IMG/VR virus record: IMGVR_UViG_3300037258_001099 | Location: 72,991-136,990 of that record | Source of the DNA: a virus | Length of the DNA stretch: 64,000 nucleotides | Direction: 5' to 3' (one strand) | Shown here: one piece after another, positions 838-60,497 of the stretch | Layout of the letters: every line of letters begins with the position of its first letter | Numbering within the stretch: the stretch's first letter is position 1 | The notes under the pieces: generated by a model | What the model saw: the letters and a program-made list of their open reading frames with translations, nothing else | What the model was told of the DNA's origin: nothing | Databases searched by the model: none | Translations under genes and position numbers: made by a program

Positions 838-853
838 ATTAAGGAAAAGTCGG
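838..853 (+). repeat. Dispersed motif copy ATTAAGGAAAAGTCGG
   Basis: Matches consensus TAAGGAAAAGTCGAT also found near 29739, 38618, 44487, 50296, 52091 and 60481. Confidence 0.75.
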
Positions 854-919
854 TTTCACGCACATTTTTGGAAAGGACAAGAGCAGTTCTTGTTCCCAGA
901 AGAAAAGGAACGTGAAACC

Positions 920-18796: not shown

Positions 18797-21700
18797 ATGG
18801 TCACTGAGAAAAGAACAATTCTAGACGGTATTCGCCAAAAGGTCTTTCTGGATCGCTACGCACTCAAAGATGCAGGGGGAAACCCCATCGAGGAGTATCC
18901 AGAAGAAATGTGGAGACGAGTTGCCTTCGCCATCGCATCCGTTGAGAAGACAAAGCCAGATCAAGACCTCTGGGAAAAGCGCTTCTACCATGCCATGGCT
19001 GATTTCAAATTTGTCCCTGGTGGCCGTATTCTCTCTGGTGCAGGAACTGGGTTTGATGTAACATGCTATAACTGCTATGTGATCGAAAGTCCTCATGACA
19101 GTCGTGAAGGTATTATCGATAATCTGAAGATCATGACCGAGATCATGGCACGTGGTGGTGGTGTTGGTATTAATCTCTCTACGCTGCGTCCACGCGGAAG
19201 TTATATCAAGACGGTCAATGGGACAGCATCGGGACCTTGCTCGTGGGCACAATTGTACTCGGTTGCCACAGGTGATGTGATCCAGCAAGGTGGCTGCTTT
19301 GGGCCGCATGTAGAAATTGAGACAGACCGTGGAGTGATCGCAGCAAGTGATCTTGCTGACCTGCTCGATAGTGGCGAGGATGTACAAGCACTTACCCATA
19401 AAGGATATCACCCCATTACGGCGGTTTTTCGCAATGGGAAAAAGAAACTCTTCCAGGTAAAAACCTATTCTGGCTTTGAAATTGAAGTCACAAAAGACCA
19501 TAAGATGGGCGTCCTTCGTGACGATACCATAACGACCGTTCCCCTTGAACATCTGCGCATCGGTAGCTCTATTCTTCGTTTCCGCAAAGAGTCGAGTACC
19601 TGCCACCCGACAAGCATCTCCTCTATCACGCCTATTGGCGAGCACGAGACCTTTGATTTTGAAGTTGCAGATGTGCATCTGCTTGTTGCTAACGGCCTCT
19701 ATACCTCAAACTCCAGGCGCGGCGCACTTATGCTGATGCTCAATGATAATCATCCTGATATTGAAGAGTTCATCACGGTCAAAAAGCAGAAGGGCATGAT
19801 TGAGCATGCGAACCTTTCTATCTGTGTCTCAGATTCGTTCATGAAGGCAGTTGAGCATGATGCTGACTGGAACCTCATCTGGGACGACAAAGTACAAAAG
19901 ACAGTGAAGGCTCGCTCACTCTGGGATCTCATCTGCACCTCGGCCTGGGAGTCAGCCGAACCAGGACTGGTATTTATGGAGCGGTGTAACGAGCAAAGCA
20001 ATACATGGTACTATGAAAAGATTAATTGTGTCAATCCATGTGTGGCTGGAGACACCCTTGTCTCTTGCTTCTACTCGATAGAGCCCATTCCTATCAAAGA
20101 GCTCGCAGAGAGAGGAAAAGATGTTCGGGTAGAGTGCTTTGACAAAGAGCGCGGTACGAGAGAAATACGCCTTGGGAGATCTCCACGTCTTACCCGCAAA
20201 GATGCGGAAGTCTGGAAGCTTACGCTTGATGATGGATCAGTCTTTCGAGCAACCCCTGACCATAAAATGCTGCTTGCAAACGGAGAAGAGCGCCAGCTTC
20301 AAGATCTTCAGGTAGATGATTACCTTGCTTCTTACGTTCGCAAAGAGGGAGTGTCGCCAACAACTAGGCAAGTTGCGGGCATTGTTCCTTATGGCAGAGA
20401 AGATGTCTACAACATTACTGTGGATGACTATCATACCGTTGCCTATATAACAAATGCAGAAAAGTATTCTGGCATCTTTGCCATGAATTGCGGCGAGCAG
20501 CCGTTAGGGGATTGGGGTGTATGTAATCTGGGAGCGATTAACTTAGCAGCTTTTGTAGAAGATGAGACCTTTGACTACACAGAGCTCAGATTAGTCACAA
20601 GAGAAGCAATGCGCTTCTTGGACAACGTGATTGACGCAACCACCTATTTTATTCCTGAGAACAAAGAAGCCCAGCTTGGTACCCGCCGTACGGGTCTTGG
20701 AACCATGGGTTTGGCCGACGCGCTGATTAAAATGCGTATCTCGTATGGGAGTCTAGAATCGCTCACTCTTATTGAATCTATCTATACCAACATTCGTAAC
20801 GTTGCCTATGAAACATCTGCGCACCTGGCAGGTGAAAAGGGAGCGTTTCCAAAGTATAGCTGGGGTGAGTATAAGCAAGGCTACTTTATTGAGCGGCTTC
20901 CTTCCCACATCCGAAGTGAGATCGCGGCAAACGGGATACGTAATGCAGTCCTGTTGACTCAGGCCCCTACAGGCACCACAAGTCTATTTGCGGGTGTCAG
21001 TTCTGGCATCGAACCTGTCTACGACTTTGCGATGATCCGGCGCGATCGTACAGGTGAGCATGTGATGTATCATCCACTGATGCAGAAGTGGCTTGACACC
21101 TGCTCTGAGAAAACACATGGATCACTTCCAAGCTACTTTGTCTCCTCAAAAGATCTCACCCCAGAACAACATGTGGCCGTACAAGCCAGGATACAGAAGT
21201 TTACCGACGCTTCCATTTCCAAAACTGTAAATGCTCCCAGTAATCATACTGTTGAACAAGTAAAAAAGCTTTATCAGCTTGCCTACAATGAGGGTTGTAA
21301 AGGTATTACTTACTACCGTGACGGCTCACGTGACGCGGTACTCACCCGTATTGCTGACGAGAAGATACTAGAAACGCCCCAGGTCGCGGAAATCTTTCAG
21401 AGAGATCGTCCAGAGATCGTCTATGGCTACACCAGGCAAATCCAGGCTCCTGAAGGCAAAGCTAATGTAACGATCAATAGTGATGAGGCAGGGCTTTTTG
21501 AGGTCTTCATAAATGTAGGGAAAGCAGGCTCGGATATCGCGGCACTATCGGAAGCACTAGGGCGGCTGATTTCCCTCAATCTTCAAATACCAAGCCTACT
21601 CTCCCCAGAGATGAAGACGATGGAGATCATCAAACAGTTACGTGGCATTGGTGGAAGCCGTACTGTTGGCTTTGGAACGCGCCAGGTGCGTTCCCTTCCT

Positions 21701-21907
21701 GATGCAGTAGCGCGTACCCTGGAGCTCCACAGCAGCCGTGTGAGCCAAGCAGAAAGCGCAGAGATTATCAGCGATGTTATTGCGTGCATGGGGTGCGCTG
21801 CTGAACCTATTCTCACTGGCAACCTCTGTCCTGAGTGTGGATGTGACAGCGTGGTCAGAGAAGAGGGATGCAAGAAGTGCCACATCTGTGGTTATAGTGA
21901 GTGCTAA
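18797..21907 (+). CDS. nrdJ: Class II (adenosylcobalamin-dependent) ribonucleotide reductase with two inteins
   Basis: PGGRIL, NCYV, GGGVG, RRGA, NP[intein]CGEQ, CNLG, APTGT, SSGIEP, SISKTVN, GCKGITYYRDGSR; C-terminal TSCPD-like domain and Zn ribbon. Confidence 0.95.
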   Translation: MVTEKRTILDGIRQKVFLDRYALKDAGGNPIEEYPEEMWRRVAFAIASVEKTKPDQDLWEKRFYHAMADFKFVPGGRILSGAGTGFDVTCYNCYVIESPHDSREGIIDNLKIMTEIMARGGGVGINLSTLRPRGSYIKTVNGTASGPCSWAQLYSVATGDVIQQGGCFGPHVEIETDRGVIAASDLADLLDSGEDVQALTHKGYHPITAVFRNGKKKLFQVKTYSGFEIEVTKDHKMGVLRDDTITTVPLEHLRIGSSILRFRKESSTCHPTSISSITPIGEHETFDFEVADVHLLVANGLYTSNSRRGALMLMLNDNHPDIEEFITVKKQKGMIEHANLSICVSDSFMKAVEHDADWNLIWDDKVQKTVKARSLWDLICTSAWESAEPGLVFMERCNEQSNTWYYEKINCVNPCVAGDTLVSCFYSIEPIPIKELAERGKDVRVECFDKERGTREIRLGRSPRLTRKDAEVWKLTLDDGSVFRATPDHKMLLANGEERQLQDLQVDDYLASYVRKEGVSPTTRQVAGIVPYGREDVYNITVDDYHTVAYITNAEKYSGIFAMNCGEQPLGDWGVCNLGAINLAAFVEDETFDYTELRLVTREAMRFLDNVIDATTYFIPENKEAQLGTRRTGLGTMGLADALIKMRISYGSLESLTLIESIYTNIRNVAYETSAHLAGEKGAFPKYSWGEYKQGYFIERLPSHIRSEIAANGIRNAVLLTQAPTGTTSLFAGVSSGIEPVYDFAMIRRDRTGEHVMYHPLMQKWLDTCSEKTHGSLPSYFVSSKDLTPEQHVAVQARIQKFTDASISKTVNAPSNHTVEQVKKLYQLAYNEGCKGITYYRDGSRDAVLTRIADEKILETPQVAEIFQRDRPEIVYGYTRQIQAPEGKANVTINSDEAGLFEVFINVGKAGSDIAALSEALGRLISLNLQIPSLLSPEMKTMEIIKQLRGIGGSRTVGFGTRQVRSLPDAVARTLELHSSRVSQAESAEIISDVIACMGCAAEPILTGNLCPECGCDSVVREEGCKKCHICGYSEC
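19295..19711 (+). mobile_element. Mini-intein 1 in NrdJ (139 aa, QGG|C...TSN|SRRGA)
   Basis: N-terminal Cys, block B TKDH, FDFEV block F, C-terminal Asn followed by Ser; too short for an endonuclease. Confidence 0.9.
20039..20488 (+). mobile_element. Mini-intein 2 in NrdJ (150 aa, NP|C...AMN|CGEQ)
   Basis: CVAGDT start, TPDH block B, DVYNITV block F, Asn before the catalytic Cys. Confidence 0.92.
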
Positions 21908-23457: not shown

Positions 23458-24471
23458 TTATCCAAAGATCTCATTAAAGAAATCATTTGCATCTTCAGAT
23501 GACTTTACTTCCTCTTCAAGATCTGTCTTTGTCGGCCAGCCATGCTTGGAATTGTTTTCCTCTCCAAGTGGCACCCATCCATGTTTTCGACTATCCTCTT
23601 TCCACTGCTCATCTGTTTGTCGTGGTCCTCGCTTACAAGAAGCGTTGCCGTATCCTATAACAGTTTCTTTAGCAGTATAGGACTCTATATCTCGAACTGG
23701 AATGCGGTAGTACTTGCTTGCAATATCGCGGTCATGATCACTTCCGCGATCACTTATATCAATAGGGGCTTCAGCTAACGCCATCTGAGTAAGCTTCTTC
23801 TCTCCAAATGTTTTCTGCGCCCATTTATAGAGATCGTCTCCATGACAACTACATCCTCGAACTATTGCAGTAAGGGCTTGAAATGCAAGTTTCCCTTCAC
23901 CTTTATAAACACCAATATACTCCTGCCATTGCTCTTGGTAGAGTTGGTCAGCAAGAGTAGATGGGACCCATCTTCGTATAGCGCTGCCATAGTGTTCTTC
24001 CCAGATATTATGGCCCTTATAAGAATAGGGATAAAAGCCCACACCAGTCCCCAGCGTTCCAGTTTTAAAACCCTGTCCTTGTGCGTCTTGCCGTTTTGTT
24101 GATCCCTTGAGCATGAGAGTGGTACAAACATACCCATCAAGAGCAGTCTTGATCCACTCTGACTCCCGATCTTTCTCAGCTTTCTCCTTATTTCGCTCCT
24201 GCTGGTACTCTTGATCCTTCTTCTCTTTCTCGGCTTTCTCTTCAGCATTCATAGCATCATAGAACGCCTTTGTAGGAAGAGGTCGATGCATGACTGTCCA
24301 GCCTACCTCGCTGTAGTAATAGCCTCCACGCTCTCTTGCTTGTGCTGACAGCTTGGCAATAATGGTAAAGGGGTAATCGTCATTGTCGGTAACTTTGACT
24401 TTCTGCACAAGTTCTTGGTCAACTGAGTCTAGACTTTCAAACCACTGGTCGTAGACTTGGTTACTATTCAT
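23458..24471 (-). CDS. Hypothetical protein
   Basis: 337-aa ORF, AGAAAGGAAAA RBS. Confidence 0.75.
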   Translation of the reverse strand: MNSNQVYDQWFESLDSVDQELVQKVKVTDNDDYPFTIIAKLSAQARERGGYYYSEVGWTVMHRPLPTKAFYDAMNAEEKAEKEKKDQEYQQERNKEKAEKDRESEWIKTALDGYVCTTLMLKGSTKRQDAQGQGFKTGTLGTGVGFYPYSYKGHNIWEEHYGSAIRRWVPSTLADQLYQEQWQEYIGVYKGEGKLAFQALTAIVRGCSCHGDDLYKWAQKTFGEKKLTQMALAEAPIDISDRGSDHDRDIASKYYRIPVRDIESYTAKETVIGYGNASCKRGPRQTDEQWKEDSRKHGWVPLGEENNSKHGWPTKTDLEEEVKSSEDANDFFNEIFG

Positions 24472-24562
24472 GGGTTTTCCTTTCTATTTAAAAGACTTCT
24501 GCCTCTAAGTATAAAGAGAAAACCCGCAGGGATTGCGGGAATTCTCATGAGTTTTTGCTAAT

Positions 24563-24760
24563 TTAGAGCTTTCCTTCATGCCTTCCGCATTTAGTCCTTA
24601 TACTTCCAGGGGGACACCAAAATGGACCGCCACATCCTGGGGCATTGCAGTATCGGGTCTCTCTCTTCTTAGTGCTATCCTTGAGTTTCCTCTCATGTTC
24701 CTGCTGTTTTGCTACTTTATCTCGTCGAAGTCTTTCTGTTTCTTGTGGGTCCTGGTACAT
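24563..24760 (-). CDS. Small Cys/His zinc-finger-like protein
   Basis: CNAPGC...C...KCGRH; GAGG RBS. Confidence 0.55.
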   Translation of the reverse strand: MYQDPQETERLRRDKVAKQQEHERKLKDSTKKRETRYCNAPGCGGPFWCPPGSIRTKCGRHEGKL

Positions 24761-24772
24761 ATATTTTCCTCT

Positions 24773-25090
24773 CTACTGCTCTAGTATAGTCCTGATAGCC
24801 TTACACTTTTCAGGACTTATCTCTCTCCAATCGATTTCTCGGAGATAGCTAACATTTTTATGATGCTCGATTGTTTCCCGTCTTTCTGAAGTGAGTGGAT
24901 AAAGCTCCGATCTACTAAAATGTCCTCCTTCTATTTTTCTCCCATCTTTTTTGTAGGTCTCTCCGTTCTCTAGGGTGATTCTCCCGCCAGGGGAGATCCT
25001 TTCGACCTTGACAATACGCCCTACTTCCCGAAATGTTATCTGCAAGTAGAGTTCATCTCCAGTCTTCACTTGGTCTTTCTCTTCTAACAA
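24773..25090 (-). CDS. Small beta-barrel hypothetical protein (paralog of 44101-44418)
   Basis: GD.L...DG....L...T.E.R..IE pattern shared with 44101-44418. Confidence 0.6.
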   Translation of the reverse strand: MLEEKDQVKTGDELYLQITFREVGRIVKVERISPGGRITLENGETYKKDGRKIEGGHFSRSELYPLTSERRETIEHHKNVSYLREIDWREISPEKCKAIRTILEQ

Positions 25091-25114
25091 AGTTTCTCCT
25101 TCCCAGCTATGCTG

Positions 25115-25654
25115 CTATTTTTTCAGGCTCTCGCAGACCCTGATCTTGCACCCTGTCTTCTCAGCAAGCGAGAGTACTGCCTCTCGTATTGGTTCCTCGT
25201 CGTCTACGAAACAAAGATACTCGATATTTAAAGCATAAATGAGTAGCTCTACTGCACCAGGCTTCCAGAGAGCTGTTTTAACAAACCTAAAAAAATCCAT
25301 GTCTTTGCAGTAGATATTTCCGTCAACAGGAAGATCATGTTTGCGTATCCACTTTCTTGTGGCATTAAGTAGATAACTAGGTCTACTGGTAAGGTAGCTG
25401 ATGCTATACCCGCTATTGCGTATAGCATAGATGCTCTCTCGTGCATTTGGAATAAGCTCGTCTTTTAGCACAAGCTCCTCTTTATAGAAGGTGTCCTTGT
25501 GATAAAAAACTTTCTTTTTAAGATCTTCCATCTCTTTCTCATCGAGATACGGCGCAGCACGATTTGTTACCATATAAGCTGTATCCTTGGCATATATCTC
25601 GCGCTTTGTGCAGTCTGCAACAACTCGGTCAATATCAATAATTGCTGTACCCAT
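25115..25654 (-). CDS. HAD-superfamily phosphatase (PNKP/5'-nucleotidase-like)
   Basis: Motif I IIDIDRVVAD, motif II LTSRP, motif III K, motif IV FVDDE. Confidence 0.78.
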   Translation of the reverse strand: MGTAIIDIDRVVADCTKREIYAKDTAYMVTNRAAPYLDEKEMEDLKKKVFYHKDTFYKEELVLKDELIPNARESIYAIRNSGYSISYLTSRPSYLLNATRKWIRKHDLPVDGNIYCKDMDFFRFVKTALWKPGAVELLIYALNIEYLCFVDDEEPIREAVLSLAEKTGCKIRVCESLKK

Positions 25655-25676
25655 CAGTCTTCTCCCTTTCCTTCTC

Positions 25677-26369
25677 CTAATTATCCAGGAATATTCCTGC
25701 TTTTGCGTCCTCCGCCGATTCGGCAAGGCGAGCTTCAATCTGGAGATTCATATCTTTTTTATCGTAGCGCTCTTGCTCAAGCTCCTTTGCTTTGCGCTGT
25801 GCCTCCTCTGCCTGATCCCTTGGGAATGGCTTGGGATGGATAAAGGAGACCTCCATGGTTGGGTTTCCCCATAGCTGCTCCTGCTGGCGGAAGTAGCAGA
25901 GGAAGTAGGCTGCATGTGGATGGTTCTTCTCAATACGCTCTCTCCAACGCTTTTGCTCTTCTTCTCTATCATGATGCTCACAAGACTGAGAAGATGGCTG
26001 GAAAGTAACAACTTTTGGCTCTGGTACTGGAGTAAGTACTCCATTTTCCCAGAAGAGCTTGCCACTTGGCATACTCCCATCATTATTACTTTCGTAAATG
26101 TGTAAATTTATCCCAACAAGGGAAAATTTGTAGGTTTTTCTATCCTGGACGTGACATGGCTCTATAAAGGCTGTAGCACATCCTGGGAGCACACGAGGAT
26201 GCCCAAGAGGAGGCGACCCCTCTTCTCCCTCAATGAAGTATCCTCCATCACGATCCTTGAGAATCTGTCGGAAGCTTTTTGCTGCAAAGTGGTCCTGTGC
26301 CCAGGAGAGATCTGAGAGGATACGATCGATAGCTTCTTTGAGTGTTGTATAAATTGGCGCTGGTTTCAT
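25677..26369 (-). CDS. Hypothetical protein
   Basis: 230-aa ORF, AGAAAGGAAA RBS. Confidence 0.65.
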   Translation of the reverse strand: MKPAPIYTTLKEAIDRILSDLSWAQDHFAAKSFRQILKDRDGGYFIEGEEGSPPLGHPRVLPGCATAFIEPCHVQDRKTYKFSLVGINLHIYESNNDGSMPSGKLFWENGVLTPVPEPKVVTFQPSSQSCEHHDREEEQKRWRERIEKNHPHAAYFLCYFRQQEQLWGNPTMEVSFIHPKPFPRDQAEEAQRKAKELEQERYDKKDMNLQIEARLAESAEDAKAGIFLDN

Positions 26370-26436
26370 ACGTTTCCTTTCTAATTGGGCTACGATTTCT
26401 CCATCATAGCCCAGACATCCGACAGCTCGCGTCGCA

Positions 26437-26661
26437 CTAAGACCGAGGCAATGCTGCCTGAATCTTTAGCCCACGAATGTAGCGCTCTCGATCTTCCAAG
26501 AGGACCCTAGCGAGGATATCTTCGTCAGGTATCTCAATAGGGTCATCCTCCAGACAGCATGCTTGCCTCTCAAGGATAGAGAGATCACGGCGGATGGCCT
26601 CATGTTTCTTTGCCGCCCATGCAGCGTCTTCAATTTCTTGTTCTGTAAATTGTTCTGTCAT
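26437..26661 (-). CDS. Hypothetical protein
   Basis: 74 aa, AAAGGGAAAA RBS. Confidence 0.6.
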   Translation of the reverse strand: MTEQFTEQEIEDAAWAAKKHEAIRRDLSILERQACCLEDDPIEIPDEDILARVLLEDRERYIRGLKIQAALPRS

Positions 26662-26675
26662 GGATTTTCCCTTTG

Positions 26676-27254
26676 CTAAACGAGGTGTAGTGGCATGCTA
26701 TCAAGACTATTTGGCTGATACTTTTTCACTAGACGCTCTGGAGCCCAAAGTATGCCAACCGATCCCCAGAATGTTGTTTTAACACCACTATGAATGCCCT
26801 TGTGATCACCAGCAAATGCAAGAATGGCATTTTTATTAATGCGATTCCATCCATGAATGTTCTCTATGTCATAGTCTTCTGGTCTTTTGTGGTTATTTGT
26901 CGTATAGACAAATCCGTATTTGTTTCCCAGATCCTCAACTGGCTGAAAATCATTATCAACTTTGATGCTCTCAATAAGTGCAAGAGCGTAAAGTCCTCCA
27001 ACTCTATTTTCTATGTCTACGGCATATCCAAGAGCTTCGGCCTCCTCCTTGGAATAGATCCAGTGTCGCCAGTAGCAGGCTGCAAGACGCAAATCGGCAG
27101 GATCTTTCCTTCTATTCATTTCCTGATACTCTTTAGGGATAGAGCGAAGGTATAAGTCTAGAGTGTCATCTGGAAGGCTTTGTAGCGCAGCTTTTCCCTT
27201 GTGGAGGTAGCGTGCGCTAAAAACAATTTCACTTGCTGGGATGTGATTGCTCAT
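26676..27254 (-). CDS. Hypothetical protein
   Basis: 192 aa, AGAAAGGAAA RBS. Confidence 0.7.
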   Translation of the reverse strand: MSNHIPASEIVFSARYLHKGKAALQSLPDDTLDLYLRSIPKEYQEMNRRKDPADLRLAACYWRHWIYSKEEAEALGYAVDIENRVGGLYALALIESIKVDNDFQPVEDLGNKYGFVYTTNNHKRPEDYDIENIHGWNRINKNAILAFAGDHKGIHSGVKTTFWGSVGILWAPERLVKKYQPNSLDSMPLHLV

Positions 27255-27329
27255 GAGTATTTCCTTTCTCTTGGGAATAAATCCCTATCTATTGGTATTT
27301 TACCAAATCGTCCGAGACAGAATCTGTCC

Positions 27330-27758
27330 CTACGAGAGCAATTCCTTTGTGTCGATCACATTAGGGAACGATTGGTGAGGATGGTCAGGGAAAACAATCC
27401 TGCCATACTCAATCTTTCGACTGTTATAAAAGTAGCGTGCCTGCCAGTAGACTCCTTCGTCGCTAAAACCAGTAGCATAGCTCCCAGGATTGATAACCCC
27501 GATAAGCTGATTGAGAACTTCATTGTCTTCAATCCAAAGCTCACCAGCAAAAATCTCTCTGTTGATATAGAGATCATCGCCTTGGGTTACGACACGAAAT
27601 CCAGCGGACTGTAGGATTCTCTTTACTCTCACAATAGGAATAAGCTTTCGATTTGATATCTCTTCCTGGTGAATTCGCTGTAGCACCGCAAGTGCTCGAT
27701 CCATCTGAGCCGCGAGAATGCAGAGCTCTGTGTACTTTGGAACAATAGTATCTGTCAT
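27330..27758 (-). CDS. Hypothetical protein
   Basis: GAGGT RBS before ATG 27758. Confidence 0.6.
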   Translation of the reverse strand: MTDTIVPKYTELCILAAQMDRALAVLQRIHQEEISNRKLIPIVRVKRILQSAGFRVVTQGDDLYINREIFAGELWIEDNEVLNQLIGVINPGSYATGFSDEGVYWQARYFYNSRKIEYGRIVFPDHPHQSFPNVIDTKELLS

Positions 27759-27760
27759 GA

Positions 27761-28249
27761 CTACCTCTTTCCTCTCTCCTGGCTGTACCAACGCTGATAC
27801 TCTCGCGCAAACTGGTCTCGCAGCTCTGGGCTGAGATCACCAAGCTCTGGGTCGTACCATGTTGGTATTTCTGCGTAGGTTTTTGCCAAGCGCTCTATGT
27901 CATAGGTCTTCTTGATAGAGAGGTGATAGGCCACATCATCCTCTGCCATCTTCCTTGCCTGATCAAGGGCAAAGACTTTTAGCTGGTCTTCCCAGCCTGC
28001 TGATGCTTGGTAGTATGCTTTTTGGTACCGAGCCACATAAACGTAATGAAACATTCGATAGTCGTTGGTAAGATCTTTGTGCGTTTCCTGCAAGCTTCTT
28101 GCGCGAGCCGATGCAAAATCGAATAGCTCCCGTTGATGAAACGTTACTCCCGATGTTTTGCTGTCGGCGTAGTCCTCACTTGCATCATCTGAGGCAAGTT
28201 GCTGAACTTCAAGTTCCGCTTCAGGGAGCGGATAAAGTGTGTTTGCCAT
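27761..28249 (-). CDS. Hypothetical protein
   Basis: AGAAAGGAAA RBS; extended -10 TGATACAAT upstream. Confidence 0.65.
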   Translation of the reverse strand: MANTLYPLPEAELEVQQLASDDASEDYADSKTSGVTFHQRELFDFASARARSLQETHKDLTNDYRMFHYVYVARYQKAYYQASAGWEDQLKVFALDQARKMAEDDVAYHLSIKKTYDIERLAKTYAEIPTWYDPELGDLSPELRDQFAREYQRWYSQERGKR

Positions 28250-28289
28250 GCTATATTTCCTTTCTGTTAATGGAATGATCCACTCATAT

Positions 28290-28450
28290 TGTATCACTAA
28301 TCGACTTTGTGACGTATCCCTGCCCGAAGGTAGAGACTCCTACGCTGTTTCCAACGTTAGACTCGTCCGGCCTAATAATTGCTTTTGCCCAAGTGTTAGG
28401 ATGTTCACGGCGGCATTTACATCTCTATCTAGTTCGCACCCACAGGCGCA
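28290..28450 (-). ncRNA. Predicted TnpB omega-RNA: scaffold ending in TCAC (28312-28309), guide starting AAAGTCGATTAGTG
   Basis: IS200/IS605-type right-end hairpin TCTCTACC-TTCG-GGCAGGGA followed by TACGTCAC just after the tnpB stop; 5' boundary approximate. Confidence 0.6.
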
Positions 28451-29533
28451 AGAGTGCCATCGCTCCGAGAGATCTTTCTTACGGATAGTTCCGCATCCTG
28501 AGCATGTCTGACTTGTGTAGGCTGGATTCACAAAGAGGACTGTCCGCCCAGCATTTGCAGCTTTGGCTTTGACCATCTCTGTAAAGCTATGCCATCCCAC
28601 ATCATTGATACTTTTGTTAAGACCTGCCTTGGTGCTTGCTCCATTAGGTAGGTACTTCCCGTTTCCATCCTGCTTTGCCTTTGGTCTCTTGCTCAGATTG
28701 GCGGGTGCCAAATCTTCAAACACGATTATCTGGTAGCGATTGACCAGCTTTCTGGACTCTTTGTGGTGAAAGTCTCGTCTCTGGTTACGCACTTTGCGAT
28801 AAGCTTTGGAAACTGTCTTGACGGCGTTCTTACGCCTGTGAGAACCGCGCCTCTTACGGGAGAGTGTCTCTTGCAGCTTCTTGAGCTTATTCTCAGATTT
28901 TCGATAATGACGCGGATTATCGATCATTTTACCATTCGAGAGAGCAGCAAAATGCGCAATACCCAAGTCTATGCCTACATCCTCATAAGCTACTAGCAAC
29001 TTCTCAGCTTCGACTTCGCAGACAAATGTCACATACCAGTGCTCACCCTCACGTTTGATCGTACATGTCTTAATCTTGCCTTCAATAGGACGATGAAACC
29101 TGATGTTGATTGAGCCAATTTTTGAGAGATTGAGCTTAGCATGCTTCTTCTCACCAACTTTGAGCTTCCATCCCTGCAATTCAGGATAAACAAAGCTATC
29201 ATAGCGGTTGTACCCCTGAAATCGAGGAAATCCTGGCTTTTCTCCACGTCTTACTCGTTTGAAGAAGCCTTGGAATGCTAAGTCAACACGCTTTATCACG
29301 TTTTGTAGTACATGGGCGCTAATATCTTTATACTCAGTCCTGATTGCTTTGATCTCTGGAAGATCGCCCTGTTGGTCATAATAGCTGATTGATTTGCGTT
29401 TATACTTCCAAGCTTCTTTTCGTTCTTGCAAAGCAGCGTTGTAGAGCTCTCTACACCGATCAAGAATCCATTGCAGCTTCTCAGCTACTTCTTTATTTGG
29501 ATAAAGGCGATATCTAAAGCTTTTCATGTTCAT
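28340..29533 (-). CDS. tnpB: TnpB RNA-guided endonuclease
   Basis: N-terminal YRLYPN..CRELYNAAL.ER; RuvC GIDLG, FEDL and DRDVNAAVNI; Zn finger TSQTCSGC..CACG. Confidence 0.95.
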   Translation of the reverse strand: MNMKSFRYRLYPNKEVAEKLQWILDRCRELYNAALQERKEAWKYKRKSISYYDQQGDLPEIKAIRTEYKDISAHVLQNVIKRVDLAFQGFFKRVRRGEKPGFPRFQGYNRYDSFVYPELQGWKLKVGEKKHAKLNLSKIGSINIRFHRPIEGKIKTCTIKREGEHWYVTFVCEVEAEKLLVAYEDVGIDLGIAHFAALSNGKMIDNPRHYRKSENKLKKLQETLSRKRRGSHRRKNAVKTVSKAYRKVRNQRRDFHHKESRKLVNRYQIIVFEDLAPANLSKRPKAKQDGNGKYLPNGASTKAGLNKSINDVGWHSFTEMVKAKAANAGRTVLFVNPAYTSQTCSGCGTIRKKDLSERWHSCACGCELDRDVNAAVNILTLGQKQLLGRTSLTLETA

Positions 29534-29696
29534 CTTTTTGCTTCTCTCCTTTCCTTTTCGCGGCATAATCTCTCAATATCCAAATAATCTCACCATTGAA
29601 TGAACGTTCATCTTCCTGTGCAAACTGTTTCGTGTCTTGCCAAACATCCACAGGGAAACGAACTTGTACTTTTTGTTCCGAATGTTTCTCTTTCAT
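29514..29696 (-). CDS. Arc-family ribbon-helix-helix DNA-binding protein
   Basis: VQVRFP.DVW......A..DERSFNGEIIWIL; probably leaderless. Confidence 0.8.
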   Translation of the reverse strand: MKEKHSEQKVQVRFPVDVWQDTKQFAQEDERSFNGEIIWILRDYAAKRKGEKQKDEHEKL

Positions 29697-29702
29697 GTAC
29701 CT

Positions 29703-29731
29703 ATTATACACCTATTTTAGATGTATGTCAA
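29703..29731 (-). promoter_or_regulatory. Consensus sigma70 promoter for arc-tnpB
   Basis: TTGACA-17-TATAAT; predicted +1 falls at about the A of ATG 29696. Confidence 0.85.
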
Positions 29732-29738
29732 TGATAAT

Positions 29739-29759
29739 TAATCGACTTTTTCTTAAATC
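29739..29759 (-). repeat. Dispersed motif copy GATTTAAGAAAAAGTCGATTA
   Basis: One mismatch to the 38618 copy over 21 bp. Confidence 0.8.
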
Positions 29760-29804
29760 TCTCGGGACTATCATGAGTTTTCTCTCCTGATTTATACTCT
29801 CTTC

Positions 29805-30863
29805 ATGACAAATTCTCAAGACCCGTTTCACCAGTATCCCGCAAAGTACCCTAAAGCCAGACGCAAAGCTGTGGAAGTTGCTGGGCATATCCACAGGTTG
29901 GTTAAGAATGGGCCGCGTACTGTTGTGGGTACGGTTGTTGACACCAGCTTCCACACGTCTGCTGGCTATGTCAGTTGCACTACGCAGCTTGGAAGCATCG
30001 TGAATGTGTTCGGCGTTCCATACGGCTCTGTGGTAAACGGTATGCGGATTTTCTGTCGTCAGATTGGAGGAGCAGCAACCAATAGATCCTATGTCTATGA
30101 TGGAGCAGCACCCAATCTCTCTGGATTGGGATACACAGGAAGTTTTGCCTATAACACTACTTTTACAGGAAGTCCCTCGGCCATTGCTCTCACCTTTGGA
30201 GGCGCTGTCCCTACCTCGGCCAGCATCATAACAGCGCAAGGTTATTTTGCTTACTGGTTTTTCTACATTCCCGCGCTTCCCACAAGTAATGCCATCCTCT
30301 GGCAATTAGTAAATGGAACGAATGTGCTTTCCTGCACGTATCTACCCAATGGTCGTCTGCAAATAAGCTCACAAGACGGACACGGCTACGCCACAACTGC
30401 CCCTGTCTCTGCCCACAATGTCCACTGGTGTATCTTGCAGCCTGGCCTCTCTGGCCTAGAGCTCCTTGTTGATATGGTGGCAGCCTATAGCGGCTTGCTC
30501 TCTTCTCCTGATATTCCAACATTTATTGGTGGCAGCTCAGGGTACCAGCTTTCCTTGCTTTCTGATCTTTTTGGAAATAGTCTTTGTCCTCTTGGCACCT
30601 GGATTAGCAAATTCTCAGTCGGCACTGCCTGGAATACTGTCTACGTGCCACAACTTCAGTCACTGGGAACAGGCCTTGGTAGTGTGCCAAGCTTAGATAG
30701 CGAGCTTCCTTGTGCCACAGCACAGCAAGACGTTTCCCTAACATACGAGCTCCTCTGTGAAGACGTGATAGGATCAAGCAACTTGGTCGATTCTGCCGGA
30801 GCTGGGGGAACAAATATCTTCATCTCGTCAGGAGGCGCAGTCCAAGCCATAGGTCCCTATTAG
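29805..30863 (+). CDS. Putative minor tail/receptor-binding protein (OB-like N-terminus, LamG-like beta sandwich)
   Basis: G/S/T-rich beta composition; co-oriented with structural and holin genes. Confidence 0.5.
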   Translation: MTNSQDPFHQYPAKYPKARRKAVEVAGHIHRLVKNGPRTVVGTVVDTSFHTSAGYVSCTTQLGSIVNVFGVPYGSVVNGMRIFCRQIGGAATNRSYVYDGAAPNLSGLGYTGSFAYNTTFTGSPSAIALTFGGAVPTSASIITAQGYFAYWFFYIPALPTSNAILWQLVNGTNVLSCTYLPNGRLQISSQDGHGYATTAPVSAHNVHWCILQPGLSGLELLVDMVAAYSGLLSSPDIPTFIGGSSGYQLSLLSDLFGNSLCPLGTWISKFSVGTAWNTVYVPQLQSLGTGLGSVPSLDSELPCATAQQDVSLTYELLCEDVIGSSNLVDSAGAGGTNIFISSGGAVQAIGPY

Positions 30864-30966
30864 AAAGTAGCCTCTCTTGCTGCTGTCCCCCTAGAATGAT
30901 CGTATCCCTCTACACGGGAGGGTAGATTTTGGGAGATTGCTACTTTACCTTTGGGAGGATTTTTCT

Positions 30967-31818
30967 ATGGCCCTTACCACCACACAAATAACCCAGATAA
31001 CAGATTCACTTGCTAAAGGCTGTGACGACTTTAATACCGCCTTTATCCTCAACACCAACACTAACACACCACTCTACTCCACCATTGTTACTGGTGTCTC
31101 AGGGACCGGAGCAAGCCAGACTTTGGGAAGAGTTTTGAACTTTTTGGAGCTCGCATCTGAAGTCAATATGCTTGGCAAGATGCAAGCAGTTGCCGCTACC
31201 GTGACTTCCTATATCGCCTCGATCAGGTCACTGGCTGGGTACTATCAAACGCTCTACCCAGTACTGGACGCGCTTGACCTCTCCATCTCTGGTGGACTCA
31301 ACGCCTTTCTCACAACAAACTCACTTCAGGTAAGTGCCCATGTAGCCACTGCTTTCAATAACTACCAGAATGTAGCAGTAGCCGCAGGCTTCCGTAGCGC
31401 AGGGAACATCCCTACAGCTATTGCTGTGCCAAACTACTTCCCATACGCAGTAGTAGACGATATGTGGGATATGACTGCATCTGGTGCTACAACTTTCTCA
31501 GCTAACTTAGTGGGCGCAAATACGTCTACAGCCGTTTCAGGAGGGGGATCAGCGCAATTATACATATACAAGGTCAATGCGGGAAATGCCGCTGGAGGAG
31601 CAACCTTTACAATTACCTATACAAATGCTCTTGGCGGATCATCCCAGGCAACGTACAGCACTGTCTCTGGTACTCCAACAGCCTCCGGCTCTCTTGCTGC
31701 TGGTTTCTCTATATCTGGAGCCATTGTTCAGGCTGTCACGGCTGTCACGGCTACTGGAATGACCTCTGGGGAGCAGTATCGCCTTGGATGTAAATTGCTT
31801 AGAAGCCCTGCGTACTAG
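30967..31818 (+). CDS. Putative virion structural protein
   Basis: A/T/G/S-rich; GGAGG RBS; TITYTN motif typical of tail proteins. Confidence 0.55.
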   Translation: MALTTTQITQITDSLAKGCDDFNTAFILNTNTNTPLYSTIVTGVSGTGASQTLGRVLNFLELASEVNMLGKMQAVAATVTSYIASIRSLAGYYQTLYPVLDALDLSISGGLNAFLTTNSLQVSAHVATAFNNYQNVAVAAGFRSAGNIPTAIAVPNYFPYAVVDDMWDMTASGATTFSANLVGANTSTAVSGGGSAQLYIYKVNAGNAAGGATFTITYTNALGGSSQATYSTVSGTPTASGSLAAGFSISGAIVQAVTAVTATGMTSGEQYRLGCKLLRSPAY

Positions 31819-31828
31819 GAGAACGCCT

Positions 31829-32239
31829 ATGAACAGCCAGGCAATCCGCTCTCTCTTTGCCGATCCGGTCACGATCGCCATTATCCTCACGCCACTTGGG
31901 TTACTTGCCTGCGATATTGCGACGGGCATTCTGCGAGCAGTGATGACCAATCAGTTCAAGGCTCGCCGCCTAGCTGACTTTCTAGGGACCAGCTTTATGA
32001 AGTATGTGGCAATGCTTGTTGGCGTCATTATTGTCTGGTTGGCAAGCGGGGACAGCGTTGCAACCTCTACAGCATCCTTGCTTGGCATGGGTATTCTCTC
32101 CCTCTCCATTGGGGCCTCGATCATTGAGAATATGCAGGCGCTTGGGCTTCCACCAACAGTTGAGCGTGATGCTGAAACGGTAGTCAAAGACCTGGAGAGT
32201 ATTGCAGATCCAGCAGCAAAGCCAGAGGTAAAGCCATGA
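31829..32239 (+). CDS. Phage holin (holin 4-1-like)
   Basis: Three TM segments; D..TG...A....F.....; SIIENM..LG. Confidence 0.75.
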   Translation: MNSQAIRSLFADPVTIAIILTPLGLLACDIATGILRAVMTNQFKARRLADFLGTSFMKYVAMLVGVIIVWLASGDSVATSTASLLGMGILSLSIGASIIENMQALGLPPTVERDAETVVKDLESIADPAAKPEVKP

Positions 32240-32463
32240 AGAATACGTGTCCTAAGTGCCTGACCGAGACAGGTGTGTCCATGGAGAGGATCACCAGAGA
32301 AAGCGAGAATGCTGAGGACATTGCTCATATCCCAGAAGGACTTGCAGCTATTACTGTCATGCAGTGCAGATCCTGCTGTTATGAGTGGCATAACGTTTCA
32401 CATAGCCATGTACTACAATCTCTTCGACTCTGGAATGCACCACTGCCAACAGGAAGGAGCTGA
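32236..32463 (+). CDS. Small zinc-ribbon protein
   Basis: CPKC...CRSC..EW; GAGGT RBS. Confidence 0.55.
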   Translation: MKNTCPKCLTETGVSMERITRESENAEDIAHIPEGLAAITVMQCRSCCYEWHNVSHSHVLQSLRLWNAPLPTGRS

Positions 32464-32465
32464 GT

Positions 32466-33092
32466 ATGACTCGCATTCAGTGCTTCTTATTAGAAAAAAC
32501 AGGGCGAGTGGAGGTAATGCTCCGGCGATATCGCTCACCGAGTACTTTTCCAGACACCTCTTGTCCAACTGGGTATGGATACCATAATGCTTCTTTCCCC
32601 ATTGGAGATGAAACAGAAGTATGCGATGAGCAAGGCTCTATCCAAAATGGCCGCATGGATATTCCTGCACATGATGACACCCGTTGGCCCACCACATGCC
32701 CCTGTGGTTACATCTTTGAGGAAGAAGATAACTGGCAGCGCACAGCTTACCCTCTCTACAGGAGAACTGATACTGGAGAAGAAATGGTCCTCAAGGATTT
32801 GCCAGTTGGCGCTATGTATTACGCAGAATGGCTAGATGATGTTTTTTGTCCTCAAAATGAGCATTGTCTTGTGGTACAAACTCCAGGTGGAGAGTGGATC
32901 ATCGATAGTCAAAGTTCTAATTGTTCTATGAAAGATGATTTTAGGCAAGAAAGGCACCATTGTTGGATACAACATGGATATCCACCTAATGTGACAGTCG
33001 ATAAGCAAGGCGTGAGTTGTTCAGCAGGAGGTGGAAGTATTGAATGCAATAATTATCACGGCTTCTTGAGGAATGGATGTTTAGTCAATTAA
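32466..33092 (+). CDS. Cys/His-rich protein with DUF6527-like C-terminus
   Basis: PGGEW.ID...CW..HG.PP.VT....SI....YHGFL.NG. Confidence 0.55.
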   Translation: MTRIQCFLLEKTGRVEVMLRRYRSPSTFPDTSCPTGYGYHNASFPIGDETEVCDEQGSIQNGRMDIPAHDDTRWPTTCPCGYIFEEEDNWQRTAYPLYRRTDTGEEMVLKDLPVGAMYYAEWLDDVFCPQNEHCLVVQTPGGEWIIDSQSSNCSMKDDFRQERHHCWIQHGYPPNVTVDKQGVSCSAGGGSIECNNYHGFLRNGCLVN

Positions 33093-33102
33093 TGGAGGAC
33101 GT

Positions 33103-33450
33103 TTGATGAAGATCCACATCGATACCGCTGATGAGAAAGAGAAAGCCCAGGCAAAGACCATTGCAACCAAGGGGAACGCCACAAAGTCCTCTGCAAAACA
33201 GAAGCCTGGTACCCCCATGAACACCAAGCCTGCACAGCAAAGCCAGCCGAGTCAGCAGCCACTTCCCAAGCAGAAAGCGAATTTGCCTAAGAGCCCTCCA
33301 AAAGAGCCCAAGGCTCCCAAGGATGTAGTGGCAGCACGCAAGGCACAGACAGATGTTCTTCAGGCTAGGCAACAGCGTGAATTGCAAGGGAAAACGGATG
33401 CCTTTAAGGAACAGGCAGGGGTAGGGTTTTGGCCGACCATGTTTCTCTAG
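33103..33450 (+). CDS. Basic low-complexity hypothetical protein
   Basis: GGAGG RBS; K/P/Q/A-rich. Confidence 0.65.
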   Translation: MMKIHIDTADEKEKAQAKTIATKGNATKSSAKQKPGTPMNTKPAQQSQPSQQPLPKQKANLPKSPPKEPKAPKDVVAARKAQTDVLQARQQRELQGKTDAFKEQAGVGFWPTMFL

Positions 33451-33462
33451 AGAAGGCTATGT

Positions 33463-33813
33463 ATGCAAGAACCAATAAAGGATCTCAGCTCTCTTATTGC
33501 TATGCTCAATATTCCCGTAAAGCAGGCCATTGATGTGAGTGAGCAAAACAGAAGATCTCTTGATGAGATGGCTCGCAAGATGATTATTCAGGAAGAAAGG
33601 CTTGTGAGAGTGGCAGATGAAAACAAGGAGTTACGGTTGGAGTTACGAGAAAGATCCAAAGAGCTAAAAGATCAAATATCTGTGCTTGAGGCCACTCTTC
33701 TAACAGATCAGAAAAAGCGAACCAATATGATTATCGGCTCGCAGGCCACAGTTCTTCTTCTTATTGTTGGAGCTTTTATCACGTACATTTTTCTTTTTCT
33801 GCCGAGGCACTAA
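33463..33813 (+). CDS. Coiled-coil protein with C-terminal TM helix
   Basis: Heptad-rich core plus hydrophobic C-terminus. Confidence 0.7.
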   Translation: MQEPIKDLSSLIAMLNIPVKQAIDVSEQNRRSLDEMARKMIIQEERLVRVADENKELRLELRERSKELKDQISVLEATLLTDQKKRTNMIIGSQATVLLLIVGAFITYIFLFLPRH

Positions 33814-33822
33814 GGAGTTATC

Positions 33823-34611
33823 ATGCTCAAACCACTCCTCTCTCGTTCTGGCATCGCGTATATGAGTGTATTTGTGGTCATAGCATGCCTTATCATTTTT
33901 TCCAATATCCTTACGCAGATCACCTTTGCCCAGGAAATAACAACGCGCAGTCTTGCTTCAACAATGTCGCTTCAAGAACTACGCACCCAGTCACTCTTTC
34001 GCAACGGACTGCTTGCAATTGTGCCTGCACCCCACCGAAATCAGCTCAATTCGCTTAAAGTAGATCCCATTGCCTCACTCAAAAGCAACCTTACCGCTAT
34101 CGAGGCAACCAACAAGATACTCATCAGCCCTGCGACTCTAAGTTCTACCGCAAAACAAATGAGAGCCCTTCAGCCTGACTTTATTCTCATGGATAAGGCT
34201 GGTCGTACTATCCTGGTTGATGTTGCAAGTAAAAACGCGAAGGATGCAGGTCAGCAGATTGCCATTCTCTTTATTCACGAGCAGAAGTATCTGCAAGGAA
34301 CCTACGCTGCCTACCAGGATCTCACGCGGACAGCAGATGATCAGATCAACTCTATCATGCAACTTGAGCGCATTATCCTGGCGCTTTCTCTCATCACACT
34401 CGCGGCAGAGGCACGATTTGTAGCCTGGCCGCTGATCCGAGATCACTATACACTCATCAGTGAGATTGATAATCTACGAACACTACAAGAACAGAGGAGA
34501 GAAGACCATGCCGAAGAAGACCATTCAGATACCAGTACAGATACCGGAACAGGAAACACCGCCGCAACAGGAGAAACAACTCTCGCCAACGGAGAAAAGG
34601 CGGATCATTGA
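33823..34611 (+). CDS. Two-TM protein with NarX/PilJ-like extracellular helical sensor region
   Basis: TM1, P-box-like MSLQELRTQSL, EQKYL....Y..L, TM2 ending FVAWPL; no signalling domain. Confidence 0.5.
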   Translation: MLKPLLSRSGIAYMSVFVVIACLIIFSNILTQITFAQEITTRSLASTMSLQELRTQSLFRNGLLAIVPAPHRNQLNSLKVDPIASLKSNLTAIEATNKILISPATLSSTAKQMRALQPDFILMDKAGRTILVDVASKNAKDAGQQIAILFIHEQKYLQGTYAAYQDLTRTADDQINSIMQLERIILALSLITLAAEARFVAWPLIRDHYTLISEIDNLRTLQEQRREDHAEEDHSDTSTDTGTGNTAATGETTLANGEKADH

Positions 34612-38617: not shown

Positions 38618-38638
38618 TAATCGACTTTTCCTTAAATC
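38618..38638 (-). repeat. Dispersed motif copy GATTTAAGGAAAAGTCGATTA
   Basis: Full match to consensus. Confidence 0.85.
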
Positions 38639-44486: not shown

Positions 44487-44502
44487 AATCGACTTTTCCT
44501 TA
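44487..44502 (-). repeat. Dispersed motif copy TAAGGAAAAGTCGATT (TAA is the stop of the 44500-44727 ORF)
   Basis: Exact core match. Confidence 0.8.
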
Positions 44503-50295: not shown

Positions 50296-50310
50296 ATCGA
50301 CTTTTCCTTA
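50296..50310 (-). repeat. Dispersed motif copy TAAGGAAAAGTCGAT
   Basis: Exact core match. Confidence 0.8.
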
Positions 50311-52090: not shown

Positions 52091-52107
52091 ATTAAGGAAA
52101 AGTCGAT
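52091..52107 (+). repeat. Dispersed motif copy ATTAAGGAAAAGTCGAT
   Basis: Exact core match about 30 bp upstream of a -35 box. Confidence 0.8.
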
Positions 52108-60480: not shown

Positions 60481-60497
60481 ATCGACTTTTCCTTAAT
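60481..60497 (-). repeat. Dispersed motif copy ATTAAGGAAAAGTCGAT overlapping an RBS
   Basis: Exact core match immediately before ATG 60479. Confidence 0.8.

Follow-up and report, generated by a model that had tools for sequence, protein, structure and literature searches.

A tnpB cassette with an Arc-type gene in one copy of a promoter-like phage motif, and the likely origin of its guide matches

What does it mean when the predicted guide RNA of a phage-borne TnpB begins with a sequence that recurs at apparent control sites all over the genome of the same phage? The question is raised by a tnpB cassette in a stretch of 64,000 nt, hereafter the window, which comprises positions 72,991 to 136,990, i.e. 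the last 64 kb, of the IMG/VR virus record IMGVR_UViG_3300037258_001099 (136,990 bp, 47% GC, CheckV completeness 91%). The original prediction, made from the letters of the window, offered two readings, namely a homing element that cuts cassette-free relatives of the phage at a conserved control site, or a nuclease-competent TnpB that doubles as an RNA-guided regulator of several phage operons. We propose that the cassette is probably a non-autonomous derivative of an Arc-type IS605 element that became fixed in one copy of a promoter-like motif of the phage, and that the guide matches elsewhere are a by-product of this location.

In the mechanism that we propose, the cassette would consist of a strong promoter, arc, a nuclease-intact tnpB and a right end (RE) encoding the omegaRNA scaffold. 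Its left end and its transposase would have been lost, or never brought in, the cassette being immobilised or never canonically inserted. The guide would be templated by the DNA 3' of the RE, which is the 3' half of the motif, giving rise to the 9-11 nt shared with other copies. If active, the TnpB-omegaRNA complex would act only on an intact version of this locus, in retention or homing. The features on which this proposal draws are collected in Table 1; all positions are those of the window unless the genome is named, and the cassette lies entirely on the minus strand.

Right end, guide and phage motif

As the point at which the RE stops was tested against the termini of relatives, the start of the guide can be set at position 28308. 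The terminus of the RE is laid out as ...GCGTAGGAG, a hairpin and ATACGTCAC, and stops at ...CGTCAC (position 28309); across the boundary the minus strand reads ...GGGATACGTCAC and then AAAGTCGATTAGTGATACAAT, the guide template starting with AAAGTCGATTAGTGATAC. Among relatives from genomes and metagenomes the RE was located by pattern in 92 of the 135 loci with a complete open reading frame (ORF), and the 65 distinct junctions of RE and flank read (A/T)CGT(T)CAC followed by diverging DNA, three of them lying at odd distances and probably being false. An element with a 63%-identical TnpB is present at least 13 times in Ktedonobacter sp. SOSP1-85; up to ...GGTACGTTCAC the copies show no difference, and beyond it their DNA is unrelated. 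The RE of the window aligns column for column with the termini of relatives in an alignment of 41 sequences (A1), which holds 39 of the 43 listed references together with the window and L061, the closest relative fetched; three loci with doubtful RE calls (L025, L026 and L058) and near-identical rows were left out of the reference set.

The same alignment contains three helices, of 17 pairs, in which 88.4% of the cells are paired as compared with 33.5-50.2% when the partners are slid, a comparison that leans in favour of the helices since they were read by eye from these very sequences. Changes on both sides are found in 15 of the 17 pairs and none of 500 shuffles reaches the observed score. 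RNAalifold recovered only the terminal hairpin from the raw MAFFT alignment, the single-sequence fold of the last 170 nt was no better than that of shuffles (z -0.46), and Rfam gave no significant family at the RE. An RE that extends through AAAGTCGATTA, with the guide starting from GTGATAC, was ruled out, as the flanks of the relatives diverge right after ..CAC. The RE boundary and the guide start that had been predicted are thus borne out by the termini of relatives, by the base-for-base alignment and by the covarying helices.

The sequence that follows the RE is part of an intergenic motif of about 20 nt, AAnGnATTAAGGAAAAGTCGRY, that is repeated in the 137-kb phage (consensus AAnGnATTAAGGAAAAGTCG(A/G)(T/C)). 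The 11-mer AAAGTCGATTA is found exactly at 28298-28308, 29739-29749 and 38618-38628. Allowing up to one mismatch, it has 6 matches in the window as against 1.07 expected, and the 15-mer TAAGRAAAAGTCGAT, allowing up to two, has 8 as against 0.29; in neither case did any of 100 shuffles reach the observed number. In the whole genome the motif is matched 21 times, at up to two mismatches and likewise at up to three to the 15-mer. By a crude ORF map, 16 of the 21 matches fall outside ORFs, and 13 precede the start of an ORF in the same orientation by no more than 150 nt. Within one mismatch of the 13-nt core there are 17 copies, 11 of the GTCGA class and 6 of the GTCGG class, an intragenic copy at genome position 13304 having been removed before counting. 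Three Ktedonobacteria genomes of 11.0, 6.2 and 5.8 Mb gave 6, 3 and 5 matches, fewer than the reversed-pattern control. Its positions and its rarity in these genomes give the motif the look of a promoter or operator that is specific to the phage and heads many of its genes. Its copies stand mostly 10-150 nt upstream of co-oriented ORFs and come as GTCGAT or as GTCGG(T/C) with an extension. As a possible reader of the motif, sigma-70 region 2 (PF04542) was not found in the phage; T7-like RNA polymerase (PF00940) gave no match there, in a search that gave none in the control genomes either.

At least 9 contiguous nucleotides of the guide recur at 11 sites besides the template in the whole phage, and all 11 are motif copies. 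Of those in the window, the two at 29749 and 38628 match over 11 nt, the one at 44496 over 10 nt, and those at 50304, 52099 (plus strand) and 60489 over 9 nt. The matches of 9-11 nt in a dispersed motif are therefore as real as had been predicted, with the one correction that 52091 is where the flanking motif begins and that the 9-mer occupies 52099-52107. As the guide is the DNA beside the RE and the cassette sits in a motif copy, however, seed matches to the other copies are automatic and constitute no independent evidence. What had been taken as a sign of RNA-guided regulation of phage operons follows from the location of the cassette in one motif copy.

Table 1. Features of the cassette, motif copies and one further phage gene, in window coordinates
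Feature	Position	Strand	Remarks
Guide template, 20 nt directly 3' of the RE (AAAGTCGATTAGTGATACAA)	28289..28308	-	placed by homology of the RE terminus in relatives
RE and 3' omegaRNA scaffold	28309..28390	-	three helices; overlaps the tnpB stop codon at 28340-28342
tnpB	28340..29533	-	397 aa from MNMKSF; in-frame upstream ATG at 29566 gives a 408-aa alternative
arc-like ribbon-helix-helix gene	29514..29696	-	60 aa from the ATG at 29696; 3' end overlaps the tnpB start
Tandem 11-nt repeat AATAGGT(G/A)(T/C)AT x2 (candidate Arc operator)	29695..29716	-	overlaps the -10 box and the arc start codon
Sigma-70-type cassette promoter TTGACA-17-TATAAT	29703..29731	-	matches the consensus at 12/12 positions
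Left near-copy of the guide target	29734..29749	-	first 11 nt identical, 14/16 match; mismatches at guide positions 12 and 14
Complete motif copy beside the cassette, GAGAGATT-TAAGAAAAAGTCGAT	29741..29762	-	reads TAAGAA, unlike the other 16 copies
Motif copy, 11-nt seed match	38620..38634	-	
Motif copy, 10-nt seed match	44488..44502	-	
Motif copy, 9-nt seed match	50296..50310	-	
Motif copy, 9-nt seed match	52093..52107	+	
Motif copy, 9-nt seed match	60481..60495	-	
Motif copy, GTCGGT class, 7-nt seed match	840..854	+	37 nt upstream of a 4588-aa ORF
Ribonucleotide reductase large subunit	18797-21907		

TAM, insertion site and the missing left end

Whether the motif copies could be bound at all depends on the transposon-adjacent motif (TAM) that the TnpB requires. 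The left ends of relatives form a GC-rich hairpin with the core GGGCCGCCGCA and are preceded by TTGAG, TTGAA, TTGAT or TTGAC. Searching by pattern yielded 34 distinct left-end contexts: 16 with TTGAG, 12 with TTGAA (12 sites of one Ktedonobacter element), one with TTAAG and five unclassed, which by eye proved to be two TTGAG, one TTGAC, one ATGAC and one false match inside tnpA. The TAM is accordingly TTGAN in 31 of the 33 true contexts, the exceptions being the ATGAC and the TTAAG. Arc-type relatives have TTGAT (L063, L058) and TTGAC (L068).

ISDra2 TnpB, as described in PMC10097598, reads TTGAT with Y52, S56, K76, F77, Q80, T123 and N124. The equivalent residues, which fall in a gapped stretch of the alignment with the ISDra2 TnpB chain 8bf8_A, are Y, Q, A, H, Q, Q and G in the TnpB of the window and Y, Q, A, H, Q, A and G in its 63%-identical, TTGAA-type Ktedonobacter relative (L005/L006), at least 5 of the 7 being shared. 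We infer that the TAM of this protein is presumably also of the TTGAN type. The TAAG(G/A)A that had been predicted to precede each match as its TAM is indeed present, yet TAAGGA is the middle of the motif itself and no separate flanking signal, and comparison with the family, whose TAM is TTGAN, speaks against a TAAGRA TAM. An unrelated TAM of the TTGAT/TTGAC kind, which the original prediction had named as grounds for its own refutation and for simple insertion into one copy, is what this comparison points to.

The copies other than the one beside the cassette show AAGGA at the TAM position, a mismatch to TTGAN at three of the four specified positions. Cleavage requires the TAM and the target match together (Karvelis 2021, PMC8612924), Sulfolobus TnpB on weak TAMs requires a full 15-nt match (PMC11043419), and binding by TldR likewise requires a TAM (PMC10705468). 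A match of 9-11 nt behind AAGGA is thus unpromising as a binding site and still less promising as a site of cleavage. With AAGGA in place of TTGAN, and with no more than 9-11 matches where the guide has at least 15-16 positions, the motif copies are most likely neither bound nor cut.

The TldRs are a precedent for a regulatory role, in which a nuclease-competent, TldR-like TnpB would bind and repress its own promoter-proximal site and the other motif copies by seed pairing over 9-11 nt. According to Wiegand et al. (PMC10705468) these proteins derive from TnpB, lack a transposase, are sometimes phage-borne and carry guides that pair with promoter DNA, guides of 9-11 nt with a seed of about 6 nt being sufficient. 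In the window the left near-target abuts the -35 box, and the motif copies are placed where a bound protein could block transcription. The same report, however, describes TldRs as having lost the RuvC triad, a loss that defines them, together with the C-terminal part of zinc finger and RuvC, and as having targets with a cognate TAM, whereas the nuclease of the window is intact and the motif copies offer AAGGA in place of the TTGAN of the family. Since, in addition, the matches are automatic from the insertion site, the guide match of the GTCGG-class copies is no longer than 7 nt and Arc already accounts for control of the promoter (see below), we regard this kind of regulation as very improbable.

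The insertion site itself is unusual. The cassette is bracketed by a direct repeat, as had been predicted, which is exact over 11 nt and, when taken to 16 nt, still identical at 14 positions, and in this it differs from the products of IS605 transposition. The right copy coincides with the guide template (28298-28308 for the 11 nt, 28293-28308 for the 16 nt). The left near-copy ends 2 nt before the -35 box, and the 11-mer within it (29739-29749) ends 7 nt before the promoter, which begins at 29731, a spacing that agrees with the one originally given. Collapsing the repeat, i.e. removing the cassette, does restore a full motif; the ATG at 28252 then follows 47 nt downstream, the usual distance between motif and gene in this phage. 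The match of 14/16 was not accepted as proof that 16 nt had been duplicated, since 12-13/16 is attained by other motif copies and the complete 11 nt are found in 3 of the 10 other GTCGAT-class copies. Instead, the repeat may represent two neighbouring motif copies, the downstream one of which is cut by the RE.

At the position that corresponds to the left end, bacterial Arc-type relatives carry a GC-rich hairpin of about 100 nt. In the window only 18 nt lie between TAAGAA and the -35 box; no local inverted repeat was found between 29712 and 29800, and no similarity to the left ends of relatives upstream of the cassette. The absence of tnpA, which had been noted for the window, extends to the entire 136,990-bp record, in which a search for Y1 tnpA (PF01797) that was positive in 6 of 14 control genomes gave nothing. 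As there is neither a left-end hairpin nor a tnpA in the record, the cassette cannot move by itself. In its relatives, Y1 tnpA and a left-end hairpin are found together with a TAM of the TTGAN type; the cassette differs from them, and from an IS200/IS605 mobile unit in general, also in its flank, which is AAGAA and not TTGAN. The TTGAC of the -35 box was considered as a TAM and ruled out as a simple reading, this -35 being homologous to the internal -35 of Arc-type relatives; a deletion between a TAM TTGAC and the -35 is conceivable.

Several observations weigh against the proposal that the cassette merely came to rest in a motif copy. A flanking repeat is no habit of the family, the best upstream match to the guide being at most 6 nt in 90 of 91 relatives and 12 nt in one. 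A 22-nt footprint at each of 17 copies amounts to 0.27% of the genome and 2.6% of its ORF-free DNA, and since chance placement in so small a footprint would be rare, targeting of the motif site, or selection for it, is likely. The flank before the guide-matching sequence is AAGAA, so textbook insertion by TnpA fails to explain the right junction either. Of the 17 copies, the one adjacent to the cassette alone reads TAAGAA and thereby has the G-A-A of TTGAA at TAM positions -3 to -1. In the loop that corresponds to T123/N124, the TnpB of the window has ELQG and all the relatives compared have D(G/H/A/V)(A/S)G or GIAG, so that a relaxed or changed TAM is possible for this protein. Lastly, tnpB looks maintained, with its full length and an intact active site.

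From the singular TAAGAA and the unusual loop there is room for a relaxed NNGAA TAM, with which the collapsed site would be cleavable and the other motif copies not. On this rests the homing reading, in which TnpB-omegaRNA would cut the uninterrupted site (...TAAGAA followed by AAAGTCGATTAGTGATAC...) in cassette-free relatives that co-infect the host, and recombinational repair would copy the cassette into the cut. The carrier would be protected by the RE, which replaces the TAM at the right copy, and by the mismatches at guide positions 12 and 14 at the left copy. An intact nuclease and omegaRNA, the complete motif that the collapsed repeat rebuilds at a typical distance from its gene, the GAA confined to this copy, the unusual loop and the non-random placement in a conserved control site all favour homing, as does a TnpB-dependent, TnpA-independent spread of IS605 in a plasmid population, cited in the review PMC13565253. 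In ISDra2, however, the T123/N124 loop reads TAM positions -4 and -5, T123A abolishes cleavage and N124A strongly lowers it (PMC10097598), and AAGAA lacks both Ts of the family TAM; the equivalences with ISDra2 fall in the gapped part of the alignment, L061, with a TnpB 74% identical, has no such repeat, and the search for cassette-free alleles gave none (see below). We therefore consider homing unlikely.

The comparison that homing invites is with the free-standing homing endonuclease genes of T4, Seg and Mob, which, as reviewed in PMC13565253, are nuclease genes between conserved genes, beside a presumed target, with the site of the carrier shielded by sequence difference, as it would be here. 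The difference is that recognition of the target would be by RNA in the present case. It is an unlikely but conceivable reading that a TnpB without transposase and left end serves as an RNA-guided, free-standing homing nuclease of a phage for one promoter-motif site by way of a relaxed NNGAA TAM, the carrier keeping a working, mismatch-disarmed target as the promoter of the cassette. Weak binding of TnpB to the left near-target could add feedback on its own expression.

The original prediction had called for cassette-free alleles in related phages, and none were found in IMG/VR or in one sequencing run. In IMG/VR, a search with both proteins that flank the cassette gave no related locus, the exact motif 16-mer gave 9 matches, all single-copy and at chance level, and neither the predicted empty-site 22-mer nor a canonical TAM with the 16-nt guide gave any. 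An alignment-based scan of viral contigs for the clade of 70-76%-identical TnpBs found nothing closer than 62%. The sequencing run, the one DNA run listed for the phage and perhaps the source sample, with no RNA run listed beside it, gave one contig identical over the stretch and no joint or variant, and is uninformative on expression or rare alleles.

The closest relative fetched, L061, is a metagenome contig of 2249 nt with a similar layout, in which a GC-rich left end is likewise missing. Its promoter reads TTGACA-17-GATATAAT, and the place of arc is taken by a 57-aa ORF that has no Pfam match. Its flanks look phage-like and share nothing with this phage. The nearest TnpBs are 69-76% identical; among those numbered P0002-P0017, P0010 is encoded on a contig of 123 kb and P0013 on one of 60.5 kb. 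GenBank phage records with a TnpB match at E <=1e-30 number 186, the nearest at 44-48% identity, and phage-borne TnpB genes are thus common in themselves.

Two further likenesses were seen among the relatives. The relative with the 12-nt upstream match is L057, from a metagenome-assembled genome of Meiothermus cerbereus, where an exact copy of its own guide start lies 1217 nt upstream of tnpB. In some relatives the junction of TAM and left end is similar to the phage motif, that of L034 (GATTGAGGAAAAGGCC...) agreeing with it (GATTAAGGAAAAGTCG...) in 13 of 15 letters, which may be chance in a purine-rich linker or may be why the motif attracts the element family.

Cassette genes and control of the promoter

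The TnpB of the window has the Pfam domains HTH_OrfB_IS605 (PF12323, 1.1e-10), OrfB_IS605 (PF01385, 2.7e-24) and Cas12f1-like TNB (PF07282, 7.5e-23), all above the cut-offs, and aligns with 8bf8_A at E 5.3e-49. The RuvC D/E/D residues, which had been judged intact from the sequence, are confirmed by this alignment, as is a CxxC...CxxC zinc finger; the conserved blocks read GIDLG, FEDL, DRD and CSGC...CACGC. We take the catalytic residues of ISDra2 to be D191/E278/D361, position 191 having been checked as Asp by counting along the alignment. With a full-length protein, both sites intact and a covarying 3' omegaRNA, the TnpB looks functional. The ISDra2-type TnpB-omegaRNA systems of IS200/IS605, as presented in PMC8612924 and PMC10097598, have the same three Pfam domains, RuvC triad and zinc finger, and, as in those systems, the omegaRNA scaffold of the window overlaps the 3' end of the gene, the RE ends in ..TCAC and the guide is taken from the flank.

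Upstream of tnpB lies an arc gene whose product matches Pfam Arc (PF03869) at 23.2 bits, with a cut-off of 20.4. Arc ORFs directly 5' of tnpB were found in 7 relative loci that represent 5 distinct places (L058, L060, L063-065, which are one place assembled three times, L068 and L089). Each of these Arc-type relatives has a strong sigma-70-type promoter; in the bacterial relatives a promoter of the same geometry as that of the window stands 5' of arc, and in the clearest cases (L058, L063, L068 and L089) the left-end hairpin of about 100 nt lies further upstream. By analogy with such elements, Arc might plausibly use the tandem 11-nt repeat across the -10 box as its operator. Inverted repeats stand at the place of this repeat in L068 and L089.

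The pairing of Arc with IS605 was first noted in PMC10690162, and Arc proteins of IS605-family elements bind and repress the promoter of the transposon, according to the report of Moon, Zedaveinyte, Wiegand and Sternberg (bioRxiv 10.64898/2026.09.24.754181). The elements described there share with the window an Arc/ribbon-helix-helix gene beside tnpB and a strong intergenic promoter. In many of them arc and tnpA are divergent from tnpB, whereas in the window arc is co-directional with tnpB, overlaps its start and is not accompanied by tnpA; also unlike them, the cassette is phage-borne and its operator is a candidate only. As repression of IS605 promoters by Arc is already published, TnpB is not needed to explain control of its own promoter, a role that had been suggested for it, and by this analogy Arc, rather than TnpB, is likely to regulate the cassette promoter.

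Alternatively, the cassette might be an inert relic with no present activity, a decaying fragment of an insertion sequence that arrived by illegitimate recombination or by shuffling of cassettes between motif copies. The missing left end and transposase, one A-C mismatch in the terminal hairpin of the RE and a second, unrelated TnpB-like gene in the phage are in keeping with decay. It is hard to reconcile, however, with a 397-aa ORF that has kept its full length and all catalytic and zinc ligands, with a promoter of perfect consensus, an intact arc and three retained 3' helices, and we rate a relic as improbable. An immobilised but intact Arc-type derivative remains our preferred explanation.

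The phage, and what the case means

The soil phage that carries the cassette probably infects Ktedonobacteria (Chloroflexota). It is very remote from described phages: a PHROG family was found for none of the 9 proteins tested on both sides of the cassette (23458-34611). An 8-kb megablast against GenBank phages gave no match. Among its other genes is an ORF of 4588 aa (890-14656, plus strand) with a UvrD helicase domain (PF00580, 1.8e-38) and a motif copy at its head.

The second TnpB-like gene lies 33 kb before the start of the window (G000:C1:39890-41215, plus strand; locus L156:391-1716). It encodes 441 aa with Pfam matches to TNB (1.7e-19) and OrfB_IS605 (9.5e-8) and is 27% identical to the TnpB of the window; about 650 nt on its 3' side hold no convincing ORFs, and an Rfam search beside it gave no significant family. 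The presence of two unrelated genes of this kind suggests that the phage was invaded repeatedly by TnpB-type elements.

If the ordinary reading is true, a guide that matches many regulatory sites can arise without any regulatory meaning, which would be a caution for scans that seek RNA-guided regulators. Beyond that, the case provides a clear instance of an Arc-TnpB element that has become immobile in a soil phage of great novelty, a phage-specific motif that resembles a promoter, and a concrete candidate for RNA-guided homing between phages.

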